Shown here: one piece after another, positions 1-45,718 of the stretch | How positions within the stretch are numbered: position 1 is the stretch's first letter | How the letters are laid out: each line of letters opens with the position of its first letter | DNA from: Microbotryum violaceum | Lineage: Eukaryota | NCBI GenBank assembly: GCA_001244265.2 | Contig: CDLV01000007.1 | Coordinates: 1,984,001-2,048,000 of the forward strand | Direction: 5' to 3' | DNA length: 64,000 nucleotides | Position numbers and translations under genes: made by a program | Notes under the pieces: generated by a model | Seen by the model: the letters and a program-made list of their open reading frames with translations, nothing else | The model's database searches: none | What the model was told of the DNA's origin: nothing

Positions 1-153
1 GGGCGCGAGGCTCTCACACTGTTAGCTTCCTATTCATCACTCTTGGCTAGAACTACATCGCTGACGTAGTAGAGTTGAGCAAATAGGTATGTTGTAATGA
101 TTCATCACTCTTGGCTATAACTACATTGCTGACGTAGTAGAGTTGATTGAATA
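1..153 (+). repeat. Copia family A LTR, 3' part (long form, duplicated U5)
   Basis: Matches LTRs 1096-1383 and 43236-43423; ends ...GATTGAATA; followed by a short copia GAG-pre-integrase fragment (154-183) from a host element. Confidence 0.9.
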
Positions 154-183: not shown

Positions 184-995
<812 letters not shown>

Positions 996-2419
996 TCAGC
1001 TCGACAGAGGCGCCTCAATCGTTGCGCGCACCGCTAGCCCGCCCCTTGCGGTGGGACTTAGGCGCGCGCGACTGCCTCAGCGAGCAGGCGCCAGCTGTGA
1101 GGAATCCACTCTCCGCTCGGCTCAGGACTTAGGCGCGCAGAGCAAGCCTGGCGCACCGGCCCAGGACTTAGGCGCGCAGGGCGAGCCTGGGCCATTGGCT
1201 CAGCCCCAAGGTTCGCAGCCTGAGGACGTGAGGCGCGCGGCTCTCTTGTTGTTAGCTTCCTATTCATCACTCCTGGCTATAACTACATTGCTGATGTAGT
1301 AGAGTTGATTGAATAGGTATGTTGTAATGATTCATCACTCTTGGCTATAACTACATTGCTGACGTAGTAGAGTTGATCGAATAGGTTATAAGCCCAACGA
1401 GCTACCAGCCCGCCGCTCGCTCGCATTTTTCCTCGAGCCCAGCCACTCGTGCCGCCCACGTCCATCGCACCATCGCACAATGGACAGTAGCGACCCCACC
1501 ACGCCTTCGTCCCCCAGGGACCCCAGCCTCTTGCGTCTTCGATCACCAATCAACTCGCTACCCTGCAGGCCCAGCTCGCCGCCCTGCAGGCCTCGCAGCC
1601 CCTGCCGCCACCGCCTCGCAGCCCCCTGCCGCCCCCGCCTCTGCTGCCACTGCCTCGCAGCCCACTGCCGCCGCCGCCGCCGCCACCACCGCATCAAAAG
1701 TCGTCTTTCCCAAGCACGCTCGCCTCGACGGCTCCAAGTCGTTCACGAACTGGTTACGCCAGCTCCGGCTCATGCTTCCGAATCAGATTCGTGGTTACGT
1801 CCTTGATGGAGTCGTTCCCCCGACGTGGACGGCCGACCAGCTGGCCGCTCGTGACGACGCCGCGCGGGAAATTATCGTCGGCTCGATCGACTCCGCCGAC
1901 ATCTCGGCAACCCTCGACGCCATCCCAAGCGACGACCTGTCGGCGCCACGCATCTTCACCGCTCTCAAGGCTCGTTTTGCACCGGACGATGCTACCCGCA
2001 CCCTCGAGTTGTTCGCCCGCCTTTGGGATTTCAGGAAGATGCCTGCCTCCGTCGAGGCATACGACACCTGGCTGCGCGAGTACATGTCCATCGTACAAGA
2101 AATTCGCGACGCCAAAACTTCACTCAACGACGTACTCGCCACTCACGTGCTTGCCATGGTCCCATCGTGCCTCGACAGCTTCCGACTCACGTTCACGGAC
2201 GAGCAACGCAACCAACGCGACCTTCCCGAGCTGACGACGCTGACCGACCGCATTTGCGTCCAACTTCGTTCGGCGGGGCTCTCCACCTCGCACTCGGCCA
2301 TGCTCGCTACCGCCTCCCCATGCCCCGCCTGCCGCACCCCCGGTCACCGCCTTCGTGACTGCACCTCACGCGCTCAACACCCCCCACCGGCCCCTGCCGT
2401 CGCTGCCACAAGAAGGGTC

Positions 2420-2534
2420 TATTAGGAGCAATATACCACTGCACCAAAAGGAGAGGCACCTCTACTTCAGGGAGCGCATATTGTCCTAGAAGTGAGATGG
2501 AGGGAGGTTCAACAGGGTCATACAAAAAAAAAAA
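2420..2534 (+). mobile_element. 115-bp poly(A)-tailed insertion (5'-truncated LINE/SINE-like) in the A1 gag zinc knuckle
   Basis: Absent from the homologous site in A2 (~42195); ends in A11; flanked by GTC/GTC. Confidence 0.7.
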
Positions 2535-3762
2535 GTCACTGGGCCCTCGACTGCAAACCGCGAAGCGACCAAAAACGAACCGGCGACGACAACCAGGACA
2601 ACACACCCTCATCGGCGGCTCAACAACCGAATGTTGGCTATTTCGCCTCCTGCCTGCTCGCTCGCCGCCATCTCCCGACCAACGCCTTCGTCGTCGATTC
2701 GGGCGCCACGACTCACATGGTCGCCGACCGCTCCCTGTTCACGACTTATCGTCCAACGGCACACACCAAGATTGGCGGCATTGCCGGCGGTGTCACGGCC
2801 ATTGGCATGGGGATGTACCGTTTGTTGCCAACACCGGACACCCGATCATGTTGCGCGGCGTTCTGCACGCGCCGGGCCTTCATGTCAACCTTCTCTCCGT
2901 CTCTCGCCTTTGTGACACCGACCGCGTTCGGCTTGCCTTCACCAGCGACGGCATCGACATCACCAAGGACGGCCAGGCCATCGCTCACGGTACACGGGTT
3001 AACGACGGTCTCTACCTCCTGGACGCGGACCACACCAAATGTCAGCAGCTTGCCTTTCTCTCACGCTCTGAGTCTACCGTGCCCCTACTTACCCTCCACC
3101 GCTGCCTCGGCCACCTTGCTCCATCCTCTATACAGAAGATGATCGCTGCGGGTTTGCTGGACGGGTTTGGGGCCGGGTACAGTGACAAAGACGTAGAAGA
3201 GTTTGTTTGCAATGCTTGCCTTGTTCCAAAGGCCATTGTCTTCCTTTTCCCGACTCGGAGTCACATTCCCCGAGAGACTTGGTCTCGTGCACAGCGATGT
3301 CCTGTCGTTTCCCACTCCGTCCTTGACCGGGAAACGCTATCTTGTCACCTTCCTTGACGACCACTCTCGCAAACTTTGGGCATACGCAATCGATCACAAA
3401 AGCGACGTCTTCCCGACCTTCCAGACTTGGCTCGCCGAAGTGGAGTTAGAAACGGACGCGCGTCTACGGATCCTCCGCACCGACAACGGCGGCGAATACC
3501 GATCCAACGCGTTCACGGAGTTCTGCCAGTCCAGGGCATTCGTCGCCAATACTCTATTCCATATACGCCTCAGCAAAACGGCCGTGCCAAACGTGTCAAC
3601 CTCTCCATCGTCGAGGGCGTCCTCGCCCTCCTTGCTGACTCCCACCTGCCGGCCACTTTTTGGGACGAAGCGGCTGCATACTTCGTTTATTGCAAAAACA
3701 GGTGCTCACACTCAGCTTTGGCCAAACAGACTCCACAATTCGTTTGGAACGGCCAACGCACC

Positions 3763-8701
<4,939 letters not shown>

Positions 8702-8981
8702 GCACCATGACCACCGCCCTTCACCCGTTCGGCTGCGCGGCCTGGCTCACGGTCGCGCCGGACCTTCGCAGCAAGCTCGACCCCAAGGCCGCGCGCGTGA
8801 TTTTTACTGGTTACGACCTCGCCTCCAAGGCTTTCCGGTTCTTCGACCATTCCACCAACAAGGTTGTGCTTGGCCGAAATGCCACCTTCCTCGACGACGA
8901 CTTCCCTGGCCTACCAGTCAACACGCCCGTCGATGCGGACAACGCCGAACGCCAGTTTGTCATTCCCGCCGACACGCAGGC

Positions 8982-9361
8982 TGTGACAAGTCCACTCTCA
9001 GCTCGGCAGAGGCGCCTCGGTCGGTGCGCGCACCGCTAGCCCGCCCCTTGCGCTGGGGACTTAGACGCGCGCAACTGACTCAGCGCGCCAGCGCCGGGTG
9101 GATCCGTGCGCGTGCCCACTAGGCCGCCCCCTTGCGGTGGGACTTAGGCGCGCGCGACTGCCTTAGCGCGCTAGCAACTTCACCGCGACTGGGCCTATCC
9201 CAGCGCGGGTCCCCTTTCTATTTCTTAGCTTCCCTCTCACCACTTCTGTTCAACAATCGACCTCTCCTGACAGTAGTGGTGATTGTCTCATAGGTATGCT
9301 GAAATAGACCACTTCTGTTCAACAATCGACCTCTCCTGACAGTAGTGGTGATTGTCTCATA
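8982..9361 (+). repeat. Solo LTR, family B (long form)
   Basis: TGTGACAAG...CTCATA with TSD CAGGC at 8977-8981 and 9362-9366. Confidence 0.95.
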
Positions 9362-12063
9362 CAGGCCCCCGCCGCCACACCCGCTCCCGCCGTCAAGACG
9401 AGGACCCCACTAGTAAGGTCGGCGCACATGGACGTCTCATCCCCTCTTGATGATTCTGCCATGAGCGCCGTTGACGTGGCCCAGGGTACACTGGCGGATC
9501 CTTACTTAATTCTACAGATACCAGCCCCTCGTCGTCTCCGTCGCTCGCCCCGATTTCGTCTCCCGCCCCGTCCTCAGGGGGGGTACCGTCCATCGAGGAC
9601 TCGGATGATCCGCTTGACCTTCTGCACTCCGACACCGCGGTTCGCCTCCGCCTGATGGACGTACATCGATCGACGACGACACCCTGGTCACACCCACACC
9701 CGCTGTTGGCCCCGGGCAGCCCTCGACAACGACTCCCCTGATGAGATCGATTTCCTCTCTCGTCATCACCGCGCCTTCATCGCCACCGACGACGACGACC
9801 CCACCCTCGAAGCCATTCAGCCGGTCAAATCGATCACTAGCGACCCTCAGACCTGGCGTGAAGCAATGTCCAGCGACGAGCACGACCTCTGGGCTCAAGC
9901 CGCCTCCGACGAGTTCACCGCCATGCGCGACAATTTCAAGGTGTTCACCATCAAGCCTCGTTCCTCGGTACCACCGGGCGCCACCATCGTCACCTCCAAA
10001 TTCGTCTGGAAGACCAAGCGCAATGCACAGGGTGATATCACAGGGCGGAAGGCACGCCTTGTCGCGCAGGGTAACCGCCAGCGCGACGGCATTGACTTCT
10101 CAGAGACGTTTGCACCGTCGCCCGTTTCTCCTCCATTCGCTGCCTCCTCGCCCTTGCTGCTGCCAACGGCTATCACGTTCATCAGGCTGACATTGACAAG
10201 GCTTACCTTCACGGCGAGCTCGATCACGACATCTGGATGACGACGCCACGAGGTTTTGACTTCCAAGCGACCAGGTTCTCCGGCTGCGGCGCTCGATCTA
10301 CGGTCTTAAGCAGGCCGGTCGCATCTGGAATCGCCACATTGACACATCGCTCAGGAGTCTTGGGTACACGGCAACGGGCACTGATCACTGCATTTACTCT
10401 CGCGTTGATGATCAGAAGCAGCCCCATTATATCGCATTATATGTCGACGATCTCCTCATTGTCAGCCCCGCCCTCGACGAGATTGAGCGTGTCATCTCCG
10501 GCCTCGAACAGCAATACGGCGTCAAACGACTCGGCCCTGCAGAATACATCCTCGGCATCCAGATTCGACGCCTGGAAGACGGCTCCATTGCTTTATCTCA
10601 GGAGCGCTACATCATGAACGTGCTCGCCCGCTTTCACTTTGACACCACAACGCGCGGCGCTACGGTGCCAATGACGCCCGGCCTCTCGCTCACGGCAGTA
10701 CCGGGTCAGGGAACGGACCGCATTTGGTCGTGGTACCTGCAAGCCATCGGCTCCCTCCTATACATTTCACTCGGCACTTGCCCCGACATTGCCTTTGCCG
10801 TCTCGTACCTGTCCCGGTTTGCCAACAACCCGGCCGCCGCCATTGGGTCGCCGTCAAACACGTCCTTCGCTACCTTCGTGCTACGTACCGTGATGAGCTA
10901 CTCTACGCCTGCGGTCCAGCCAAGATTACAGGGGTGGTTGGCTATTCCGATGCAAACTGGGGTGCCTGCGTTGACACGTCAATCTCCACAATGGGCTTCG
11001 TCTTTTACTTGGCCGGCTCCGCTGTCTCTTGGTCATCGAAGCGTCAGACTCGGGTAGCAGATTCCACCACTGATGCCGAATACCTCGCCTTGTCGCACGC
11101 TGGTAAGGAGGCCATTTACCTCACACAACTCCTCTCGAGCTCCATGTTCGCCCAATCGATGCAGCCCACATCTTCACGGACAACGAGGCCGCGGCCGCCG
11201 TCGCCCACGACCCCGTTCGCACCTCCGGCACTCGGCACATCCGTCTCCGCGAGCACTTCGTCCGCGACATGGTCAACCAAGGCGATATATCCCTCTCCCA
11301 CGTTGGCACAGCGAACATGGTTGCGGACCTATTCACCAAAGCGCTAGGTCCCAAGATTTTTGGTACGCATTGCTATGCTCTGGGCCTCCGGACGCAACAC
11401 CCACAGCTCAAGTCTACCTCGCGTTTGCGTGGGGGGGGGTGTGAGGAATCCACTCTCCGCTCGGCTCAGGACTTAGGCGCGCAGAGCGAGCCTGGCGCAC
11501 CGGCCCAGGACTTAGGCGCGCACTTGCCTGGCGCACCGGCCCAGGACTTAGGCGCGCGGAGCGAGCCAGGCGCACACAGCCCCAGGACTTAGGCGCGCAG
11601 GGTGAGCCTGGGCCATTGGCTCAGCCCCAAGGTTCGCAGCCTGAGGACGTGAGGCGCGCGGCTCTCTTGTTGTTAGCTTCCTATTCATCACTCTTGGCTA
11701 TAACTACATTGCTGACGTAGTAGAGTTGATCGAATAGGTATGTTGTAATGATTCATCACTCTTGGCTATAACTACATTGCTGACGTAGTAGAGTGGATCG
11801 AATACCAGCGGACTCGGGCGCGCGCCCGCTAGGCCACCCCCTTGCGGTGGGGACTTAGGCGCGCGCGCCTGCCTTAGCGCGCTAGCAACTTCACCCGCGA
11901 CTGGGCCTATCTCAGCGCGGGTCCCCTTTCTGTTTCTTAGCTTCCCTCTCACCACTTCTGTTCAACATTCAACCTCTCCTGACAGTAGTGGTGATCGTCT
12001 CATAGGTATGCTGAAATAGACCACTTCTGTTCAACATTCAACCTCTCCTGACAGTAGTGGTGA

Positions 12064-16606
<4,543 letters not shown>

Positions 16607-16921
16607 TGTGACAAGTCCACTCTCAGCTCGGCAGAGGCGCCTCGGTCGTTGCGCGCACCCGCTAGCCCGCCCCCCTGCGCTGGGGACTTAGACGCGCGCG
16701 ACTGACTCAGCGCGCCAGCGCCGGGTGGATCCGTGCGCGTGCCCACTAGGCCGCCCCCTTGCGGTGGGGACTTAGGCGCGCGCGACTGCCTTAGTGCGCT
16801 AGCAACTTCACCCGCAACTGGGCCTATCTCAGCGCGGGTCCCCTTTCTGTTTCTTAGCTTCCCTCTCACCACTTCTGTTCAACAACCAACCTCTCCTGAC
16901 AGTAGTGGTGATCGTCTCATA

Positions 16922-19826
<2,905 letters not shown>

Positions 19827-19928
19827 TGATGATGTCACGCCTGCTCAAGCGGTGGTAAGTCTCTGATCGAAGGACCAAGGGAGACCAGACCAAGAAGTTG
19901 CTTCTTACACACCTGCTCAAGCGGTGGT

Positions 19929-20300
19929 TATGAGACAATCACCACTACTGTCAGGAGAGGTTGATTGTTGAACAGAAGTGGTCTATTTCAGCATACCTAT
20001 GAGACAATCACCACTACTGTCAGGAGAGGTTGATTGTTGAACAGAAGTGGTGAGAGGGAAGCTAAGAAACAGAAAGGGGGCCCGCACTGGGGTGAAATCG
20101 CTAGGGCGCTGAGGCAGCTGCGCGCGTCTAAGTCGCCACCTCAAGGGGGCGGCCTAGCGGCGCGCGCGCCCGAGTCCGCTGGCGCCTGCTCGCTGAGGCC
20201 GTCGCGCGCGCCTAAGTCCCCACTGCAAGGGGGCGGGCTAGCGGGTGCGCGCGACGACCGAGGCGCCTCTGTCGAGCTGAGAGTGGACTGACTCTTCACA
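19929..20300 (-). repeat. Solo LTR, family B (long form), inside the C2 3' LTR
   Basis: TSD GTGGT at 19924-19928 and 20301-20305. Confidence 0.95.
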
Positions 20301-20726
20301 GTGGTAAGTCTCTGATCGAAGGACCAAGGGAGACCAGACCAAGAAGTTGCTTGTTACACACCTGCTCAAGCACTACAGTAAGTTACCACATCTAGAGGGG
20401 TGAAAGATGATAGGAAGAGTAGTGCTCACCTGCTCAAGCGGTGGTAAGTCTCTGATCGAAGGACCAAGGGAGACCAGACCAAGAAGTTGCTTGAGCAGGA
20501 GAGAAACCAGAGTGGGGCCATTTGGCTGGGCCCAAGTCAGCCCAGCCAAAGTCAGGCGCACGGACCTGGCCCAGGTGCAGAGACCAGGCCCAGAGTGGGA
20601 GAGCTAAGGTGGTGAAAAGTAGGCCAAAAGTGATCAAAACGAAGAGAGGAGGATGTTGAGGTAGGTACAAGATACAAGAAGGACATGAAGGAGATATTTG
20701 ATCTCACACCCCCCCTACTTCGAGTA

Positions 20727-23700
20727 TCAGGGAGCACAGATACCGAGTCGACCGCGGTGCCGAGCAAAGAGGTCGCGTGACAATGCTTTGGTGAAGATGT
20801 CCGCTGTCATCTCACCAGTGTTGATGTACTGGACGACAATGTCGCCCATGGAAACCATATCCCGGACGAAGTGTTTGCGCAGGCGGATGTGCCGAGTCCG
20901 AGCATGAAATACCGGATTCTTGGTGAGAGCATTGGTGCCTTGGTTGACGCCGTAGATGAGGACGGGCTTTGAAGACGAAAGGCCAAGCTCACCAAAGAGC
21001 TGACGCAGAAAGATTGCCTCCTTACCAGCGTGTGACAGTGCGAGGTACTCGGCGTCACAAGTGGAGTCGGCAACGCGCGATTGAAGCCGGGAGGACCATG
21101 AGACGGCAGCACCTGCATAGACGAAAGTGTAACCCATGGTCGACTTGGAAGAGAGGACGCATGCACCCCAGTTGCAGTCGGAGTAGCCCAAGAGCGGTGC
21201 CGGATTCCCACGAGCGTAGCGTAAGCCGTGAGAAAGAGTGCCAGCGAGGTAACGGAAGGCGTGTTTGACAGCTCCCCAAGCAGCAGCGGAAGGCGAGTGA
21301 GAGAAGCGAGCCAAGTAACCGACGGTGTAAGCCAGGTCGGGCCGAGTACCAGTGGACGCGTACATAAGGGAACCAATGGCCTGCAGGTACCGAGTGCGAT
21401 CCGGGAATGGGGTGGGCTGCAGCTCGACTTCGAGGCGGAGATTGGGCTGCATGGGCGTGGCGACGGGATGGGCATCGGACATTCCAAATCGGGCAAGGAC
21501 GTCCTTGAGGTATTGTTCCTGACTCAGAGAGATGGAACCGTCTGGAGAGCGCCGGATCTGGATGCCGAGGACGTATTCTGCCTCACCGAGCCGTTTGACA
21601 CCATAGCGCTGCTCAAGACCCTGAAGGGTACGCTCAATCTCAGGGAGAGAGGGGCTGATCATGAGCAGGTCGTCGACATAGAGCGCAATGTAGTGGTGCA
21701 CATCACCCGTTGTCCTGACGTAGACGCAGTGGTCGGATTCGGTGGCAACGTAGCCGAGTGCGGACAAGGCAGAGTCAATCTCGTCGTTCCAGATGCGACC
21801 GGCCTGGCGCAAACCATAGAGGGACCGATGCAGTTGGAGGACCTTGCCTGGCATGTAGATGCCATCAGGCACACGAATGTACAGGGGTGCGTCGAGTTTG
21901 CCGTGCAGGTAGGCTTTGTCGATGTTGGCCTGGTGGACGTGGTACCCATGAGCAGCAGCAAGAGCCAGGAGTGCGCGGATGGAGGTGAATTTGGCCACGG
22001 GTGCAAAGGTCTCGTCAAAGTCAATGCCAGAGCGTTGGGAGTCACCACGAGCAACGAGACGGCCCTTGTAGGACTTGACTTGGCCATGCTGGTCGCGTTT
22101 GGTGCGGAAGACAAAGCGGGAGCCCAGGACCTTGGCGTCTGCTGGGACAAGGGACTCGTCAATCGGTGTGAACGCCGAAAAATCTCGCAAGAGTGAGTCA
22201 AACTCGTTGCGGGCCGCAAGACGCCATTCATCCGCTTGAGGAGTGGCCATGGCCGCTCGCCAGTGAGGTGGGTCGCGAGCGGGGGCAATCAGTTCCGCAG
22301 GGTCGGCGGGCGAGGTCTCAATGAGGGCGGCAGCGCCAGAGGCAAGGTAGGCCACGGCAGAGGGTGAGTGGAGTGCGTCATCCACGTCGTCGGGAAACTC
22401 CTGCGCCTGGCATAGCGAAGCAACATCGCGTGGGCGTGGCAGGAGATCGATCGGGTCCGGGGAGTCGGACCGAGCGGGTGAGGGTGGCGCTGGCAACGCA
22501 CGGGAGGCCACGGGGCGCGGGGAAGGACAAGGCGTGGAGATGGCCGAGTCAGAGCTACCTTGGTCAGAGGCGCTTGATGCAGGTGATTCCGGGTCAGGGA
22601 GCTCACGAGCAGGGGAGCCTTGGTCAGGGGCAGGGGGTGCGAGCGAGTCCTGGTCAGGGACCTCGCAGGCAGGGGCGGGACGGTGCGGGCCCTGGTCAGG
22701 GGCTGCCGGCACGGGTCGAGGTGGCTCAGCGCGAGGCGCAAGTGAGCGAGGGGAAGCAACGAGCGAAGGCTCAAGGGGGTCTACCTGGTCAGGGTATGCG
22801 TCAACAGTGACGGGGAGTGGGATTGGTTCAGCGCGAACGTCGGTGGCTGGCCGGAGTGCAGGGAACTCGGATTCACGGAAGACAACATTGCGGCTGAGTT
22901 GTATCCTGCGCGTGGACGGCTCGAAGAGTCGGAAAGCCTTGGCATGGTGGTCAAAACCAACGAACAGGAGGGGTACAGCCTTGGGGTCGAGGTCCGTGCG
23001 CTTGGCCGAGGGAAGGTGGTGCCAAGCGCGGCAGCCAAATGCGCGAAGGGTGGAGATGTCAGGCGCAAAGCCATGCCAACGAGCGTCGGGGATCTCACCA
23101 CCAATGCCGGCGTGAGGCATCAGGTTTTTGCAGTGCACATAGTACAAAGCGGCCTCACCCCAGAGGCGTGAATCAGCGCCAGAGGAGTAGAGCAGAGCAA
23201 GGATACCCTCCTTGATGGTGCGATTGCTGCGCTCAACACGCCCATTTTGTTGGGGTGTGTAAGGGATAGTGAGTTCCCGACGAATGCCTTTGCTTGCACA
23301 GAAGTCAACGAAGTTGCCCAGAGTAAACTCGCCTCCATTGTCAGAGCGGATGGTCTTCACCTTGTTGCCGGTGGCATTCTTGACTTCAAGGATCCAGTCG
23401 CAAAGGCGAGGGAAGACGTCACTTTTGAGTGCCAGGAGGATACACCAGTGCTTGCGAGAGAAGTCATCAATGATGACCAGCATGTACCGATGTCCACCAA
23501 ATGTAGGGCGAGGCATTTGCGCTACATCGACGTGGAGGAGATCCAGACGGCCAGAGGGGATGGACTTGGACCGGGCAAAGGGGAGGGCATGCGCTTTGGA
23601 AGCGAGAGAAGCATTGCAGTAAAAATCCCGGAGCTCCTGATCCTTATACACCCAATCCACCCCAGTAACCAAGCCTTTCTGCACAATGTTTTTGATTTGC

Positions 23701-25059
23701 GCAACGGGCAAGTGCGCGAGGCGACGGTGCAGAGTCAGCAAGGACACTTTGGTAGGGATGGCGAGGAGGGCTTTGGGCGTACAGGGTGTAGGTCCAAGTG
23801 CCAAGGCGTACAGGTTGTTCCCAATGGCTTGAGCGGTAGCAACGACGGCACCCAAGGGACGGGCGATGCTTGCACAACGAGATGCGAAGGAGACGCGGTA
23901 GCCAAGTTGATCCAACTGGAAGACGGACAGCAGGTTGCATGGGAGATCCGGTACCAGGAGGACATTGGACACGGTGATCGGACCCGTTGAAGTCTGGATG
24001 CAAATGGTGCCGCAGCCGGTGGAAGGGAGGGAGCCGGCGACGCCTCCAACTCGTGGGCCTGCGACCGTGCGAAGCTCGGAAAAAAGGCCCCTGTCGTTCG
24101 TCATATGGCAATTAGCGCCCGAGTCAAGGAGCCAAGCCGATTTGCGAAATGGCGAAGGTGTTGCGAGGAGACAGGCCGTGAACGACACAGAGTTGGGTGT
24201 GTCCACTGCGGCTGGTGACGCGACTGGCTGGGAGGCCTTCTTCTCGGCGGTGCGACGAGCTCGGTAGGCGGCGGCCCAGGCGGTGTCGAGGCATTCCGGA
24301 GCCAGTGCAACTTGCGACAAGACGGATTTGGGCACGGCTTTGAACAGCCGTGGCGGGACTGCGGGGTGGCGACGGCGGCAACAGGAGTATCGACGGGGCG
24401 GGCTTTGACATCGCGGTAAAGGCGCGTGAAGATCTCGGTGGCGGAGGGCATCGCAGTGGAATCGCCCTGGTCAGCAACGAAGGTGGTGCGCCAGGCGTCA
24501 AAGGACGAAGGAAGGCGAGCAAGCAAGTGCGAGGCGAGAAGGGCGTTCACGGTGACCTGCGAGTCCTGCAGCAGCCGGGCGTCGTTTTCGAAACTGTCGC
24601 GGAATTGCAGGAACAGGTCGGGAGTGACGGGCACAGGGTCGGAGCTGAAGAGGTGTTGGATGACCGGTAGCAGATCGACAGCAGAGACGGTGCCGTAGCG
24701 TTCGCGAAGTGCCTGCCAGACCTTGGGTGCTGCGAGTGATTCGTCGAGGTAAGGTGACAGGCCCGGGAGGACAGTTTGCGAATCAACGGAGGCGCAAATG
24801 GAGGAGCAGGCGTAGTGGTCCCAGAGAGGGACATACGAAGCAGGCCAAGACTCGAGTGGTACGCCCGTGTTGAGGTAACGGACGACGCCGGAGGCAGGCG
24901 TGAACGGATGGCGAGGACCCAGTCTCGGTAGCCGGACGAATTGCGAAGCAGCTCGGTCGTTGCGAAGGCCGCAGAGTGGGTGGGCGGGCGCAAGGGCGGC
25001 GCATCGGGCGTGGGCTCGCGGAGCTTGGCTTCAGGCGCGGAGGCGCCGGCGTCGGACAT
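20727..25059 (-). CDS. Copia C2 Gag-Pol; pol intact (1202-aa ORF), gag with a few 1-nt frameshifts
   Basis: LLDSGA protease, IRSDNGGEF/PQQNGRVER integrase, LYVDDLL RT and RNase H; gag ATG at 25059. Confidence 0.85.
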
Positions 25060-27126
25060 GTTGCGAAGGGTGAAAAAGTAGAGCGAAGGGCGGGCACGGA
25101 GGTGGCCGCACTGGTAGCTCGGTTGGGCTAATAACCTGTGATGTTGTCACGCCTGCTCAAGCGGTGGTAAGTCTCTGATCGAAGGACCAAGGGAGACCAG
25201 ACCAAGAAGTTGCTTTTTACACACCTGCTCAAGCGGTGGTAAGTCTCTGATTGAAGGACCAAGGGAGACCAGACCAAGAAGTTGCTTTTTACACACCTGC
25301 TCAAGCACTACAGTAAGTTACCACATCTAGAGGGGTGAAAGATGATAGGAAGAGTAGTGCTCACCTGCTCAAGCGGTGGTAAGTCTCTGATCGAAGGACC
25401 AAGGGAGACCAGACCAAGAAGTTGCTTGAGCAGGAGAGAAACCAGAGTGGGGCCATTTGGCTGGGCCCAAGTCAGCCCAGCCAAAGTCAGGCGCACGGAC
25501 CTGGCCCAGGTGCAGAGACCAGGCCCAGAGTGGGAGAGCTAAGGTGGTGAAAAGTAGGCCAAAAGTGATCAAAACGAAGAGAGGAGGATGTTGAGGTAGG
25601 TACAAGATACAAGAAGGACATGAAGGAGATATTTGATCTCACAGCGTCAACAATACTCTATCCCTCGCACGCCTCAACAATACGGTCGGGCGGAGCGGGT
25701 CAATCGTTCCATTGTTGAAGGCATTCTTGCCCTTCTGGCGGACGCCCATCTACCCAAGACATTCTGGGAGGAGGCTGCGGCTTACTTCGTTTACTGCAAG
25801 AACCTGGTTCAACACTCGGCTCTCAACAAGGCAACACCAAACTTGGTCTGGCAGGGCGGACGCACCACAGCCTCCGCGCTTCACCCATTCGGCTGCACAG
25901 CTTGGCTCACGGTCGCGCCCGAACTTCGCTCGAAACTCGACCCCAAGGCGGTTCGCGTTCTCTTCACCGGCTACGACCTGGCTTCCAAAGCCTTCCGTTT
26001 CTACGACACAACGACCAAGAAGATCATTTTGGGCAGAAATGCCAGCTTCCTCGACACTGAATTCCCCGGTTTACTTGGCGACTCCACCGAGGAAGACGCC
26101 GACACGCACTTCGCCAGCGCTCCCATTGCCGAACCTCAAGACACTGTCAAGACATGGACCCCACTAGTAAGGTCGGCGCACATGGACGTCTCATCCCCTC
26201 TTGATGATTCTACCATGAGCGCCGTTGACGTGGCCCCAGGGTACACTGGCGGAACCTTGCTTAATTCTACAGATGCCGAATCGTCCTCATCACCGTCTCC
26301 TGAGCCGCCCTCGTCGCCGTCGCCTGCGCTCTCGACTGCGCCCTCACCGTCATTCCCTGCGTCACCGTCACCCTCGGCCTTGCCAAACGACTCTGAATAC
26401 TCCGCGGATCCTCTCGACCTCATCAGCTCACAGCCCCAGGTTCGCCTCGACCCACCGGGCGTGCATCGCCCCGACTTCGGCAAGTACCGCGAGCCCGCAT
26501 CGGCTGAGGAGTCGCCCGACGAACTCGACCTCATTGGGCGCCACTCTCGTGACGAATCGCCGGACGAAATCGATTTCCTCACCCGACACCACCGCACTTT
26601 CATCGCGACCGACGACGACACCTCTGACACTGAGGCCATCCAGCCAGTCAAGTCCATCACAAGCGACCCACAGACCTGGCGCGAGGCAATGTCGAGCGAC
26701 AAAAGTGAAGTGTGGGCCAGGGCCGCCGATGACGAGTTCAATTCCATGCGCGACGACTTCAAGGTTTTCACCATCGAGGACCGCTCTACGGTACCCACCA
26801 GCGCGACCATCGTCACGTCCAAGTTCGTCTGGAAAACGAAACGGAACGCACTCGGCGAAATCACTGGACACAAGGCACGGTTGGTAGCGCAAGGAAATCG
26901 GCAACGGGACGGCATTGACTTCAACGAAACCTTCGCCCCGGTCGCCCAATTCTCCTCGATACGCTCACTCCTCGCGCTGGCGGCCGCCAACGGCTTGCAC
27001 GTACACCAAGCGGACATCGACAAAGCCTACCTTCACGGCGACCTCGATCACAACATCTGGATGACGGCACCGCGCGGCTTCGACCTTCCAGCGACAAGGT
27101 GCTTCGGCTGCGACGCTCCATCTACG

Positions 27127-32148
<5,022 letters not shown>

Positions 32149-33752: not shown

Positions 33753-38849
<5,097 letters not shown>

Positions 38850-41800: not shown

Positions 41801-43423
41801 AGCCGAACGCGGTCGGTGTCACAAAGGCGAGAGACGGAGAGAAGGTTGACGTGAAGGCCCGGCGCATGCAGAACGCCGCGCAACGTGATCGGGTGTCCGG
41901 TGTTGGCAACAAACGCTACATCCCCCATACCAATGGCCGTGATACCGCCGGCAATGCCGCCAATCTTGGTGTGTGCCGTTGGACGATAAGTCGTGAACAG
42001 GGAGCGGTCGGCGACCATGTGAGTCGTTGCGCCCAAGTCGACTACGAAGGCGTTGGTCGGGAGTTGGCGGCGGGCAAATAGGCAGGAGGCAACATATCCG
42101 ATGTTCGGTCAGTGAGCCGTGGAAGAAGACAAGTCGTCCTGGGTGTCGTCGCTGGTACGTGTCTGTTGGCCCCGGTTCTTGCAGTCGAGGGCCCAGTGAC
42201 CTCGCTTTTGGCAGCGGCGGCAGGGGCCGGTGGGCGGATGCTTTGCACGTGAAGTGCAGTCGCGCAGGCGGTGGCCGGGGCGCGGCAGGTGGGGCAAGAG
42301 GGGGCGTCGGCGAGCATGGCCAAATGCGAGGCCGAGAGGCCGGCGGATCGGAGCTGAACGCGGATACGGTCCGTTAAGGTCGTGAGCTCCGGGAGTTCGC
42401 GCTGGGCGCGCTGCTCGTCCGTGAACGTTAGCCGGAAGCTGTCTAGGCAGGACGGTACCATGGCGAGGATGTGGGTGGCGAGGACGTCGTTCAGCAATGT
42501 CTTGGCGTCGCGAATCTCTTGAGCAATGGCCATGTATTCTCGCAGCCAGGTGTCATAGGCCTCGACCGAGGCGGGCATCTTCCGAAAGTCCCAAAGGCGG
42601 GCGAATAATTTGAGGGTGCGAGTGGCGTCGTTCGGTGCGAAACAAGCTTTGAGTGCGGCGAAGATGCGTGGCGCCGACAGGTCGTCGCTTGGGATGGCGT
42701 CGAGGGTTGCTGAGACGTCGGCGGAGTCGATCGAGCCGACAATAATTTCCCGCGCGGCGTTGTCACGAGCGGCCAGCTGGTCGGCCGTCCACGTTGGGGG
42801 AACGACTCCATCAAGGACGTAACCACGAATCTGATTCGGAAGCGTGAGCCGGAGCTGGCGTAACCAGTTCGTGAACGACTTGGAGCCGTCTAGGCGAGCG
42901 TGCTTGGGAAAGACGACTTTTGATGCGGTGGTGGCGGCGGCGGCGGCGGCAGTGGGCTGCGAGGCAGCGGCGGCAGAGGCGGTGGCGGCAGGGGGCTGCG
43001 AGGCAGCGGCGGCAGGGTGCTGCGAGGCCTGCAGAGCGGCGAGCTGGGCCTGCAGGGTAGCGAGTTGATCGCTGATCGAAGACGCAAGAGGGCTGGGGTC
43101 CCTGGGGGACGAAGGCGTGGTGGGGTCGCTACTGTCCATTGTGCGATGGTGCGATGGACGTGGGCGGCTCGAGTGGCTGGGCTCGAAGAAAAATGCGAGC
43201 AAGCGGCGGGCTGGTAGCTCGTTGGGCTTATAACCTATTCGATCAACTCTACTACGTCAGCGATGTAGTTCTAGCCAAGAGTGATGAATAGGAAGCTAAC
43301 AGTGTGAGAGCCGCGCGCCCCAAGTTTCCCAGGCTCGCTCCGCGCGCCTAAGCCCTGGGCCGGTGTGCCTGGCTCGATCCGCGCGCCTAAGTCCTGAGCC
43401 GAGCGGAGAGTGGATTCCTCACA
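38850..43423 (-). mobile_element. Copia element A2, 3'-truncated in RNase H (5' LTR 43236-43423, short form)
   Basis: PBS GGTTATAAGCCC next to 43235; gag ATG at 43139; PR, IN, RT and partial RNase H ORFs. Confidence 0.9.
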
Positions 43424-45718
43424 AGAAGTGGCCAAGCTGGTTCTCCTGGCACCAATCCGGAACTCTGCCGGATCCTCCGCACCCACATGGTCTCGTTGCT
43501 GGCTGGCTGGTTGGACCTCTCCCTCGAGAAGCTTGCCCTCGACGCTCCGGTGGTCCCTACCAGTCCGGAGGCCGCTGAGGTTTTTAGTGACGCACACACG
43601 GACCAACCTCTCGAGTTCGATTACCAAGTCTTTGAGAGGATTGGTCGCGAGGAATGGAGCGTCATTGCGCAGCGACGCCAAGCCATTGCGACCCAGGCAG
43701 TGTGCTACAACAGCGCCCCACGTACTCGCGACCCGCTGCAGCCTTGGCTGCACCCCACGTTGCGACAGCTGCTACCGGCCATTCCCCGATCACGGGTGGC
43801 CCCCGCCCCGTTGCCCGACTCACCGTCGACGAGCGCGCGTACCTGGACCAGAACCACGGATGCTATCGCTGCCGCACTCTCAACGCCAACCACATCTTGC
43901 GCAACTGCCCCCGCTACTTGTCACCCATGGGAGCGTCCGCCACTCCGTCGACGCCAACGTTGACCGCTCCTGCGCCTCGCCCCGGGCCCCGTATGGTGGC
44001 GGCCATTCGGACCTTCCAAGAAACTGGCGATTCAACCGTGTTCGACGGCCTCAGCAGCGACTCGGAGGACGACAACGATCCTTCGTACACACCGCATCCC
44101 TTTCCCCCTTACCCGTCTCCCTAGCCGGCGCTCATGGTACTCTCCTTGCCTCCGCCCTAGTCAATTTGGGATCGCCTCAAACATTTCTCAGTGAGGAGCT
44201 TGTTCAGCGACTGGGTTTGGAACGGCGCGCCCTGGAACAGCATTCGAAGTACACCCTTGCAATGCAAACCCAAGTCCCCACTGTCTTCACCTGCACGCAC
44301 TTTGTTCGAGTCCCGCTCGAGCTGGCCAATGGGCTCTGGGCCGCAGGACCGACGTACGCCGAGGTAGCGCCCCTTGGGAAGGACCTTGCAATCATCTTGG
44401 GAGGCAACTTCATCTATCGGCACAAGATGGAGGTCGGCCTCTTCCCTCAGCCACACCTCACCTGCAAAGCCAACCCCATACACGCTATAGACCTGCTGGC
44501 GCTGTCGTCCCAGCCGTGCACTGCCGTGCGGGTTGCCGCAATTGCTCCGGTTTCTGACGACGAGGAGCAGCTCCGCCTTGCCGCGCTTGACCATCGCCTT
44601 CGAGCGGAGTTTGCCGACCGTTTTCCTGTGGATATCCCGCCTGTACACTCGTACCAATCCCGGTGCGACACCGTATTGAGCTTGACACTCTGTCCACTGT
44701 TGTCAACCTTCAAGGATACTCCCTCCCGAAGAAGTATCGCGAGGCATGGTACTTACTACTACAGGAACATCTTGCGGCCGGTCGCCTCCGCCCCTCTTGG
44801 TCGGCATACTCGTCACCCTCGTTCATCATCCCAAAGAAGGGCCGACGTGGATCCCACGATCGCCCCGCGCTGGGTGAACGACTACCGCGAGCTCAACAAG
44901 CACACCATCAAAGACCGCACGCCTCTGCCCTTGATGGACAACATTCTCTCAACATGCTCCAATGCGCAATTCTGGGCCAAGATTGACATGACCAACTCCT
45001 TCTTTCAGACCAAGATGGCGGAGGAAGACAGCCATAAGACGGCCGTGTCCACACCTTGGGGTTTGTACGAATGGACCGTCATGCCCATGGGCCTCTGCAA
45101 TGCCCCTGCCACCCACCAACAACGTGTCAACAAGGCGCTCCAAGGCCTGCTTGGCACCATCTGCTTCGTCTACCTCGACGACATCACCATCTTTGCGGAT
45201 ACACTGGAGGAGCACGAGGCCCGTGTTCGCCAAGTCCTGGATGCGCTGCGCCGTGCCAAACTCTATTGCTCGCCAACCAAAACCAACCTTGCCACTGCGG
45301 AGTGCTTGTTCCTTGGCCACATCATCAACCGAGCCGGAGTACATCATTGAAGACATTGTTGACGAGAGGATCCGTGCTGGCAAGCAGCAATACCTCATCT
45401 CGTGGCTCTCATGGCCATCAGACAGCAATTCATGGGAGCCTGCCGAGGCACTGGAGGATACGGAGGCATTGAATAGGTGGGAGCGTCGGAACGAGTAGGA
45501 TTTTTGACCGGAGGAGGGGATTTGTTTCAAGGCGGGGAGAGTGTAAGGCGCGCGCCTTACTACGGGCCACAGGGATTAGAAATAGAGATCGCGCGCACCT
45601 AGCTTCTTCAGTTCCCTCCCCATTGGGCTGACACCAGAAGCTAGTTGCAATCCATATAGCTTGCACCTGTCAGCTAGGTCGCCAGTGAGGCTCGAGAGCA
45701 ATCTCGTGCCTTTCAACA
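43424..45718 (+). mobile_element. Degenerate chromodomain Ty3/gypsy (chromovirus) remnant: gag 3' end, PR, partial RT, chromodomain, PPT and probable 3' LTR
   Basis: CYRC...H...C knuckle; PRWVNDYRELN, MPMGLCNAP and YLDD RT motifs; chromodomain YIIEDIVDER...YLISW...SWEPAEAL (45336-45498); purine tract then TGTAAGG at 45542; LTR end ...CAACA at 45718 is tentative. Confidence 0.85.

Follow-up and report, generated by a model that had tools for sequence, protein, structure and literature searches.

Retroelements are expected to lose introns that are spliced out of their template RNA. Drosophila copia and other Ty1/copia elements are primed by a half-molecule of the initiator methionine tRNA (tRNA-iMet), and the known splicing of copia removes pol to give the gag mRNA, with its donor outside the long terminal repeat (LTR). 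To our knowledge, copia has no duplicated leader unit in the unique 5' region (U5) of its LTR. In human T-lymphotropic virus 1 (HTLV-1), bovine leukaemia virus (BLV) and the foamy viruses, the major splice donor lies in the terminally repeated region (R), but the acceptor is far downstream, and the spliced RNAs are subgenomic and do not serve as templates. Here we describe a 64,000-nucleotide stretch of DNA from Microbotryum violaceum (contig CDLV01000007.1, positions 1,984,001 to 2,048,000; the window, with coordinates counted from its first letter), in which three families of Ty1/copia retrotransposons, called A, B and C, carry LTRs with a leader unit repeated two or three times, and in which the spacer between two units together with the following unit resembles a short intron.

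The elements of the window are like Drosophila copia and other Ty1/copia elements in having the integrase ahead of an RVT_2-type reverse transcriptase, 5-bp target-site duplications (TSDs) and a polypurine tract. They also resemble copia in that GGTTAT, right behind the LTR, opens the primer-binding site (PBS), which, as judged from bacterial-type tRNA genes, would pair with an initiator-type tRNA-Met at its anticodon arm and not at the CCA end. As in HTLV-1, BLV and the foamy viruses, a donor at the start of the spacer would lie in the LTR and hence at both RNA ends, but here donor, branch site and acceptor would all be in U5, ending at the PBS. Short forms, LTRs of discordant unit number and a chimeric LTR with a crossover between units recall the direct-repeat deletions made by retroviral reverse transcriptases and the strand-transfer recombination in R. 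Unlike in retroviral vectors, where such repeats are lost, the repeats are kept here in three diverged families, with copies that are identical in B and, at insertion, in C. Host splicing separates transcript roles in Ogre-type plant elements and is reported to do so in BARE (PMC3735527), but those introns lie in the internal region and have no repeat that would allow rebuilding. Introners (PMC12130899) are also mobile elements that carry or create splice signals, but a whole introner becomes the intron of a host gene, whereas the intron proposed here would be in the leader of the element itself.

The long LTRs of families A and B end in two units of 54 nucleotides (nt), different in sequence between the families and parted by a spacer starting GGTATG (Table 1); all coordinates given for these repeats in a first-pass annotation of the window hold. 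BLAST of the A and B units against the window, with the flanks then checked, found 14 A/B LTR ends, 8 of which are long (two units) and 6 short (one unit), and none of the 14 has three units. In the long LTRs, the spacer plus unit 2 makes a string of 68 nt in A (GTATGT...CTGAC...TAG) and of 69 nt in B (GTATGC...CTGAC...TAG). Excision of either string gives ...ATAG/GTTAT, the same as the unspliced U5/PBS junction, and the sequence is thus as first described. The single unit of the short LTRs equals the predicted spliced product, and the six short LTRs named at the outset are all right; 16607 marks where the LTR with the unit 16868-16921 begins. In the four long 3' or solo LTRs, the final TA is followed by G, C, C and A, so that the terminal AG is mostly missing there, in agreement with the earlier remark that 3' LTRs end in TA and normally lack it.

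The order unit 1-spacer-unit 2 is bridged by contigs of two DNA runs from other samples (X1 record 2 and X2 record 26), and misassembly of the window is therefore not the source of the duplication. The sequence ...AAATAG GTATGTTGAAATG CATTCG... in a contig of a fourth organism (X17) shows the same plan with a near-identical spacer. It is highly improbable that the pattern reflects chance similarity or misassembly, because the eight A/B loci and the C loci have different flanks and TSDs, contigs of other runs bridge the repeat, and intron-like windows occur in the background at a rate of about 1 in 100,000.

The same plan, a unit ending in AG, a spacer starting with GT and the unit again, recurs in family C, which is absent from the first-pass annotation and much more diverged, so that the anatomy is present at 8 A/B loci and 2-3 C loci. 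The long C LTR has a 60-nt unit three times, each copy ending in ...GAGCAG. The spacers between these units read GTGTGTAA[A/C/G]AAG and start with GTGTGT, and a 16-nt tail, GCGTGACA[A/T]CATCACA, stands just before the PBS. To the eye, the C unit begins like those of A and B, and the tail looks like a spacer with GT turned into GC; the internal spacers of C start with GT, and the related terminal tail starts with GC. In both long C LTRs, unit 1 is followed by an extra 57-nt piece, GTGAGC...GGTAACTTACTGTAG, and then by a second TGCTTGAGCAG. A lack of conservation across families had been named in advance as an argument against an intron; instead, both architecture and signals recur in family C, where the branch site is only CTTAC. 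As a side observation, the 57-nt piece alone also reads as a short intron, and it holds a CT-rich stretch resembling the border between the unique 3' region (U3) and unit 1 of family A.

The splice-like signals were examined by a strict intron test (GTRNGY at the start, CTRAY 10-35 nt before the end, and YAG) on windows of 68, 69 and 72 nt on both strands, the intron consensus being general knowledge and not derived from host introns. The test was passed by 9 of 383,570 windows; five of the nine are preceded by AG, and all five are in these LTRs. This rarity indicates that the intron-like pattern is not due to chance. Families A and B have the canonical signals of a short fungal-type intron, and family C passes only with a relaxed branch site, YTNAY (CTTAC). 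The donor hexamer is GTATGT in 3/3 A spacers, GTATGC in four and GTACGC in one of the five B spacers, and GTGTGT in 5/5 inter-unit spacers of C, with GTGAGC in the extra piece of both long C LTRs; the beginning of each spacer, whatever its family, matches GTRNGY. Families A and B have a CTGAC branch site 22-23 nt ahead of the terminal TAG, and the AGs nearer to this site stand only 3-10 nt from its branch A. In the B leader, all upstream ATGs are in the spacer, as are those of the A leader except for one private C>T change, and the ATGs of the spacer would leave with the putative intron. The spacer ATGs (1316-1329, 12005-12019) open mini open reading frames of 2-7 codons, and the consensus leader with one unit has no ATG. 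Unit 1 of A and B starts with an A after a pyrimidine, right behind a CT-rich tract, which is typical of a fungal transcription start. None of the 24 runs that a search turned up is recorded as RNA. Contigs of X15, X17, X1 and X2 over 11400-13600 gave 12 listed joints, without a skip of 68 or 69 nt among them, although such a skip would not prove splicing because short forms exist as DNA.

Table 1. Elements, LTRs and leader units of families A, B and C in the window
Feature	Position	Strand	Details
A(+) element	1096-11804	+	TSD CCAGC; both LTRs long
B(-) element	8701-3763	-	TSD GGTGC; 5' LTR long, 3' LTR short
C(-) element	25643-19825	-	TSD GACGC; both LTRs long; 503/507 aligned bases identical between LTRs
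Family A 5' LTR, long	1096..1383	+	unit 1 1262-1315; G plus spacer 1316-1329; spacer sequence GGTATGTTGTAATG; unit 2 1330-1383; putative intron 1317-1384; TSD CCAGC common to 3' LTR
Family A 3' LTR, same element, long	11440..11804	+	units 11683-11736, 11751-11804; nine-G polypurine tract upstream
End of another family A 3' LTR, long (A_153)	1..153	+	units 32-85, 100-153
Family A 5' LTR, short	43236..43423	-	single unit 43236-43289; PBS 43213-43235
Family B 5' LTR right part, long	11806..12073	+	units 11951-12004, 12020-12073; spacer sequence GGTATGCTGAAATAG; putative intron 12006-12074; PBS 12074-12096; left part starts 942/980, severed by inserted A element
LTRs of the B(-) element	3763..8701	-	5' LTR 8701-8403 long (units 8525-8472, 8456-8403); 3' LTR 4074-3763 short, one unit, one more 85-nt U3 repeat; TSD GGTGC
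Solo family B LTR, long	8982..9361	+	TSD CAGGC
Solo family B LTR, long	19929..20300	-	TSD ACCAC; sits in 3' LTR of C element
Family B 5' LTR, long	27127..27509	+	spacer GGTACGCTGAAATAG; private TTTGAC variant in both units; PBS 27510-27532
Family B 3' LTR, short	16607..16921	+	unit 16868-16921; polypurine tract upstream
Family B 3' LTR, short	33753..34064	-	polypurine tract upstream
Subfamily B' 3' LTR, short	184..494	-	
Subfamily B' 5' LTR, short	38620..38849	-	PBS 38597-38619
Family C 5' LTR, long	25137..25643	-	units 25424-25365, 25284-25225, 25212-25153, each ending CAG; spacers GTGTGTAAAAAG; after unit 1, 57-nt GTGAGC...TGTAG plus TGCTTGAGCAG; 16-nt tail GCGTGACAACATCACA; PBS 25136-25113
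Family C 3' LTR, same element, long	19825..20708	-	20708-20301 plus 19928-19825, split by solo B LTR; TSD GACGC; 503/507 match to 5' LTR
Family C 3' LTR, short	18895..19169	+	one unit 19094-19153
Family C 3' LTR, short	31854..32148	+	one unit 32073-32132
Family C 5' LTR fragment	29901..30029	+	spacer plus last unit, so at least 2 units; PBS 30006-30029

The two units of a long B LTR are identical in 5/5 cases, and 40 comparisons of B units from different LTRs gave 0-4 differences over the 54 sites, on average 2.4. Since an A/T transversion and a double change, CA>TG, are among the variants common to both units of a B copy, parallel C>T damage cannot explain the identity of the units. In family C, all three units were identical at insertion. 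Since the B units are identical within LTRs that differ from one another, replication must repeatedly copy one unit over the other, and the simplest route for this, already proposed in the first-pass annotation, is a one-unit first-strand complementary DNA (cDNA) that lands on the last unit of the 3' LTR transcript. A chimeric A LTR (A_153) has U3 and unit 1 with the markers of the short copy at 43236 and unit 2 with the markers of the 1383/11804 type, as would be expected if unit 2 derives from the 5' end of a second RNA, and this suggests that R may extend past position 28 of unit 1. On balance, it is probable that the duplicated leader unit is maintained by strand transfer.

These features lead us to favour, tentatively and on sequence grounds, an intron that restores itself. 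The unit, of 54 nt in A and B and of 60 nt plus the 16-nt tail in C, would probably begin at the transcription start and reach to the LTR terminus. Its copies, two in A and B and three in C, are parted by a conserved 12-15-nt spacer starting with GT, and the spacer and the next unit would together form a spliceosomal intron of 68-72 nt. The 3' part of such an intron repeats the upstream exon, so that its removal would leave an ordinary one-unit leader joined to the PBS. Splicing of the 5' copy would be followed by synthesis of a minus-strand strong-stop DNA that carries one unit, and this DNA would anneal to the last unit of the 3' LTR transcript and be extended through the spacer, unit 1 and U3. 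Both new LTRs would then be long again, with the last unit rewritten from the first, and annealing to unit 1 instead would give short LTRs. For this scheme we infer that transcription starts at the first base of the unit, that the poly(A) site lies inside or beyond the last unit, and that the RNA is spliced and in its spliced form serves as the template.

The observation made in the first-pass annotation is thus confirmed and extended, and its interpretation is partly supported. That the intron is rebuilt in each cycle agrees with the identity of the units in the five B LTRs and, at insertion, in C, but not with family A, in which the units differ at 5, 3 and 1 positions. That short LTRs are spliced products agrees with their single unit but fails for the B(-) element, and splicing would be one possible source of the one-unit cDNA.

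Several observations weigh against the self-restoring intron. The differences between the units of the long A LTRs compare with a mean of 2.83 between LTRs, and so the A units show no homogeneity; in the LTR ending at 1383, however, two of the three differences are CG>TG, and since unit 1 of the sister 3' LTR has none of the three, these differences arose after insertion. The B(-) element (8701-3763), which is bracketed by a matching TSD, GGTGC, has a long 5' and a short 3' LTR. Because a spliced template would give two short LTRs, this short LTR is attributable to slippage or later deletion and not to splicing. Family C, with three units and CTTAC as the sole branch candidate, behaves as a tandem array, and a three-unit A LTR may be present in X1, where a low-depth contig steps back by 69 in the A repeat. 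The donor AG/GT and the acceptor TAG/G both equal the duplicated U5/PBS junction A/GGT and are hence not independent evidence, so that the independent signal is donor positions +3 to +6 plus the branch site, by our own estimate about a 1-in-150 coincidence. The whole A/B spacer is conserved beyond the donor alone (11/14 positions by eye), and the conserved block of the unit is wider than CTGAC. This conservation may serve another role, possibly that of a poly(A) signal; the spacer resembles the known poly(A) motif of TATGT plus an A-rich stretch. The one-unit cDNA and the homogenisation would equally result if reverse transcriptase switched templates between direct repeats. Finally, the accessible parts of the sources found by a literature search describe no LTR element with an intron in U5 and no mechanism for rebuilding an intron.

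In an account without splicing, a tandem R/U5 duplication is both made and reshuffled by reverse transcriptase alone. Template switching and early or misaligned first-strand transfer would delete, add and homogenise units, GT...AG would be a by-product of the A/GGT duplication, and the spacer would be kept for another reason such as a poly(A) signal. Direct-repeat deletion by retroviral reverse transcriptases is frequent and well established. In the B(-) element with its matching TSD, the LTRs are discordant not only in unit number but also in the number of 85-nt U3 repeats, and the LTRs of the A element, too, have unequal numbers of U3 repeats, indicating that slippage is active. Unit number varies between 1 and 2 in A and B and between 1 and 3 in C, including an element, B(-), with 2 in the 5' and 1 in the 3' LTR, and the possible three-unit A LTR of the X1 contig would fit the same behaviour, as do the duplicated junction, which accounts for both AG/GT and TAG/G, and the conservation of the spacer over its full length. 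However, a short form cannot regain the spacer, so that long forms should decay, and this account states no advantage for them. Misaligned transfer of full-length cDNA should also make three-unit LTRs, and 0/14 A/B LTRs are of this kind. Moreover, no spacer of the three families departs from the consensus at donor positions +3 to +6, and only the terminal pseudo-spacer of C has GC. We consider reshuffling by reverse transcriptase alone only slightly less probable than the self-restoring intron.

The pairing of long 5' with short 3' LTRs is found in three candidate pairs, 8701-3763 (-), 942/16921 (+) and 29901/32148 (+), of which only the first has a matching TSD, and the reverse arrangement is found in none. 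This one-sidedness may be accidental (1 in 8), or it may hint that discordant LTRs can form within one cycle.

Alternatively, the string could be a real intron that does not restore itself, with the unspliced RNA as the replication template and the spliced RNA translated. Occasional reverse transcription of spliced RNA would then give the short LTRs, and the repeat would give both RNAs the same U5 end beside the PBS. The canonical signals, the identity of the short LTRs with the spliced product and the loss of the upstream ATGs together with the spacer are as this account would have it, and separate RNA pools for translation and replication are reported for BARE (PMC3735527). By itself, however, it leaves the identical units of 5/5 long B LTRs unexplained, and the window holds no verified element with two short LTRs. 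In addition, only the 14-15-nt spacer is unique to the unspliced RNA, by which packaging could hardly tell the two RNAs apart. We consider an intron of this kind unlikely.

If the self-restoring intron is real, an intron rebuilt through strand transfer would resolve the conflict of expression with replication in a new way, and first-strand transfer could be followed with the repeated units as natural markers. If there is no splicing, a function must still be sought for an R/U5 duplication that three families keep and homogenise: deletion of a repeat is irreversible, and because long forms persist nonetheless in three diverged families, the long form can be argued to have a function. Intron-dependent expression is known in basidiomycetes. 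The duplicated leader could then be an adaptation that keeps an intron in the 5' untranslated region for a host that needs introns for transcript accumulation, while the element replicates through spliced RNA and rebuilds the intron in both LTRs in each cycle; such a device would be old, since families A, B and C have it, and would probably be common throughout this copia lineage. We regard this wider proposal as somewhat unlikely.

The PBS of family A (1384..1406 (+), GGTTATAAGCCCAACGAGCTACC) would pair internally with an initiator-type tRNA-Met, over a stretch that runs from its D loop into the anticodon arm. A PBS starting with GGTTAT follows six A/B 5' LTRs and two C LTRs, which makes 8 matches in the window against 0 expected. 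Its four variants (AA, TC, TT and TA; 1384-1406, 12074-12096, 25113-25136 and 38597-38619) are all mismatched opposite the wobble base C34, and those of B and B' also opposite U33. When metagenome contigs were scanned with a degenerate PBS pattern, 108 of 120 matches fell, at about tRNA nt 19-41, within genes that ARAGORN calls as tRNA-Met(CAT), and most of the remaining 12, which have no tRNA call, lay within about 50 nt of a contig end. The tRNA-Met genes matched in this way look bacterial and are not the host's own tRNA, and the scan of these contigs found only tRNA-Met genes and no related elements. There are no tRNA genes in the window. A pattern of spacer plus PBS had 2 matches in viral contigs and 11 in prokaryote genomes, all AT-rich chance matches without the repeated unit, and a search of viral contigs with the pol protein gave no match. 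A tRNA-Ile primer was dropped because the anticodon positions were inconsistent among the families. An origin of the spacer from the tRNA primer was also dropped, there being no similarity by eye, as was the idea that the G before unit 2 is a cap-derived base, which is true of A and B but not of C.

Tandem repeats are also present in U3. In family A they are about 39 nt long with a CAGGACTTAGGCGCGC core (1118-1217, 11462-11638), and in family B about 85 nt (3965-4074, 9023-9105 and others). The number of these repeats differs between the LTRs of one element, giving lengths of 288 and 365 nt in A and of 299 and 312 nt in B(-). At 942-1017, the first 38 nt of the family B LTR (TGTGAAGAGTCCAC...GCGCCTCG) are doubled in tandem at the LTR start.

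The window as a whole is a nest of Ty1/copia elements with the Pfam domains RVT_2, rve, gag_pre-integrs, Pol_BBD and SH3_retrovirus. In the open reading frame (ORF) 20727-24335(-), the integrase lies upstream of the reverse transcriptase (Pol_BBD at residues 68-146, rve at 265-361, SH3_retrovirus at 421-492 and RVT_2 at 730-963). The LTRs start with TGTGA..., and a run of G, the polypurine tract, stands ahead of the 3' LTRs. TSDs of 5 bp bracket five units, namely A(+), B(-), C(-) and two solo B LTRs. Three further candidate LTR pairs had no matching TSD and were set aside: B(+) 942/16921, B'(-) 38849/33753 or 38849/184, and C(+) 29901/32148. None of ten ORFs tested between 51 and 64 kb has a credible Pfam family, and hence there are no host genes or introns for comparison; this region may consist of decayed repeats. 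Matches in a protein atlas were to a mixture of eukaryotes, among them Basidiomycota, Streptophyta and Oomycota. An ORF at 43410-45350 (+) with RVT_1 adjoins the short A element and possibly belongs to a gypsy-type or other non-copia retroelement. Among the differences between copies, C>T and T>C predominate in all four runs compared, and several differences between units are CG>TG, a pattern that resembles repeat-induced point mutation or the loss of methylated CpG.

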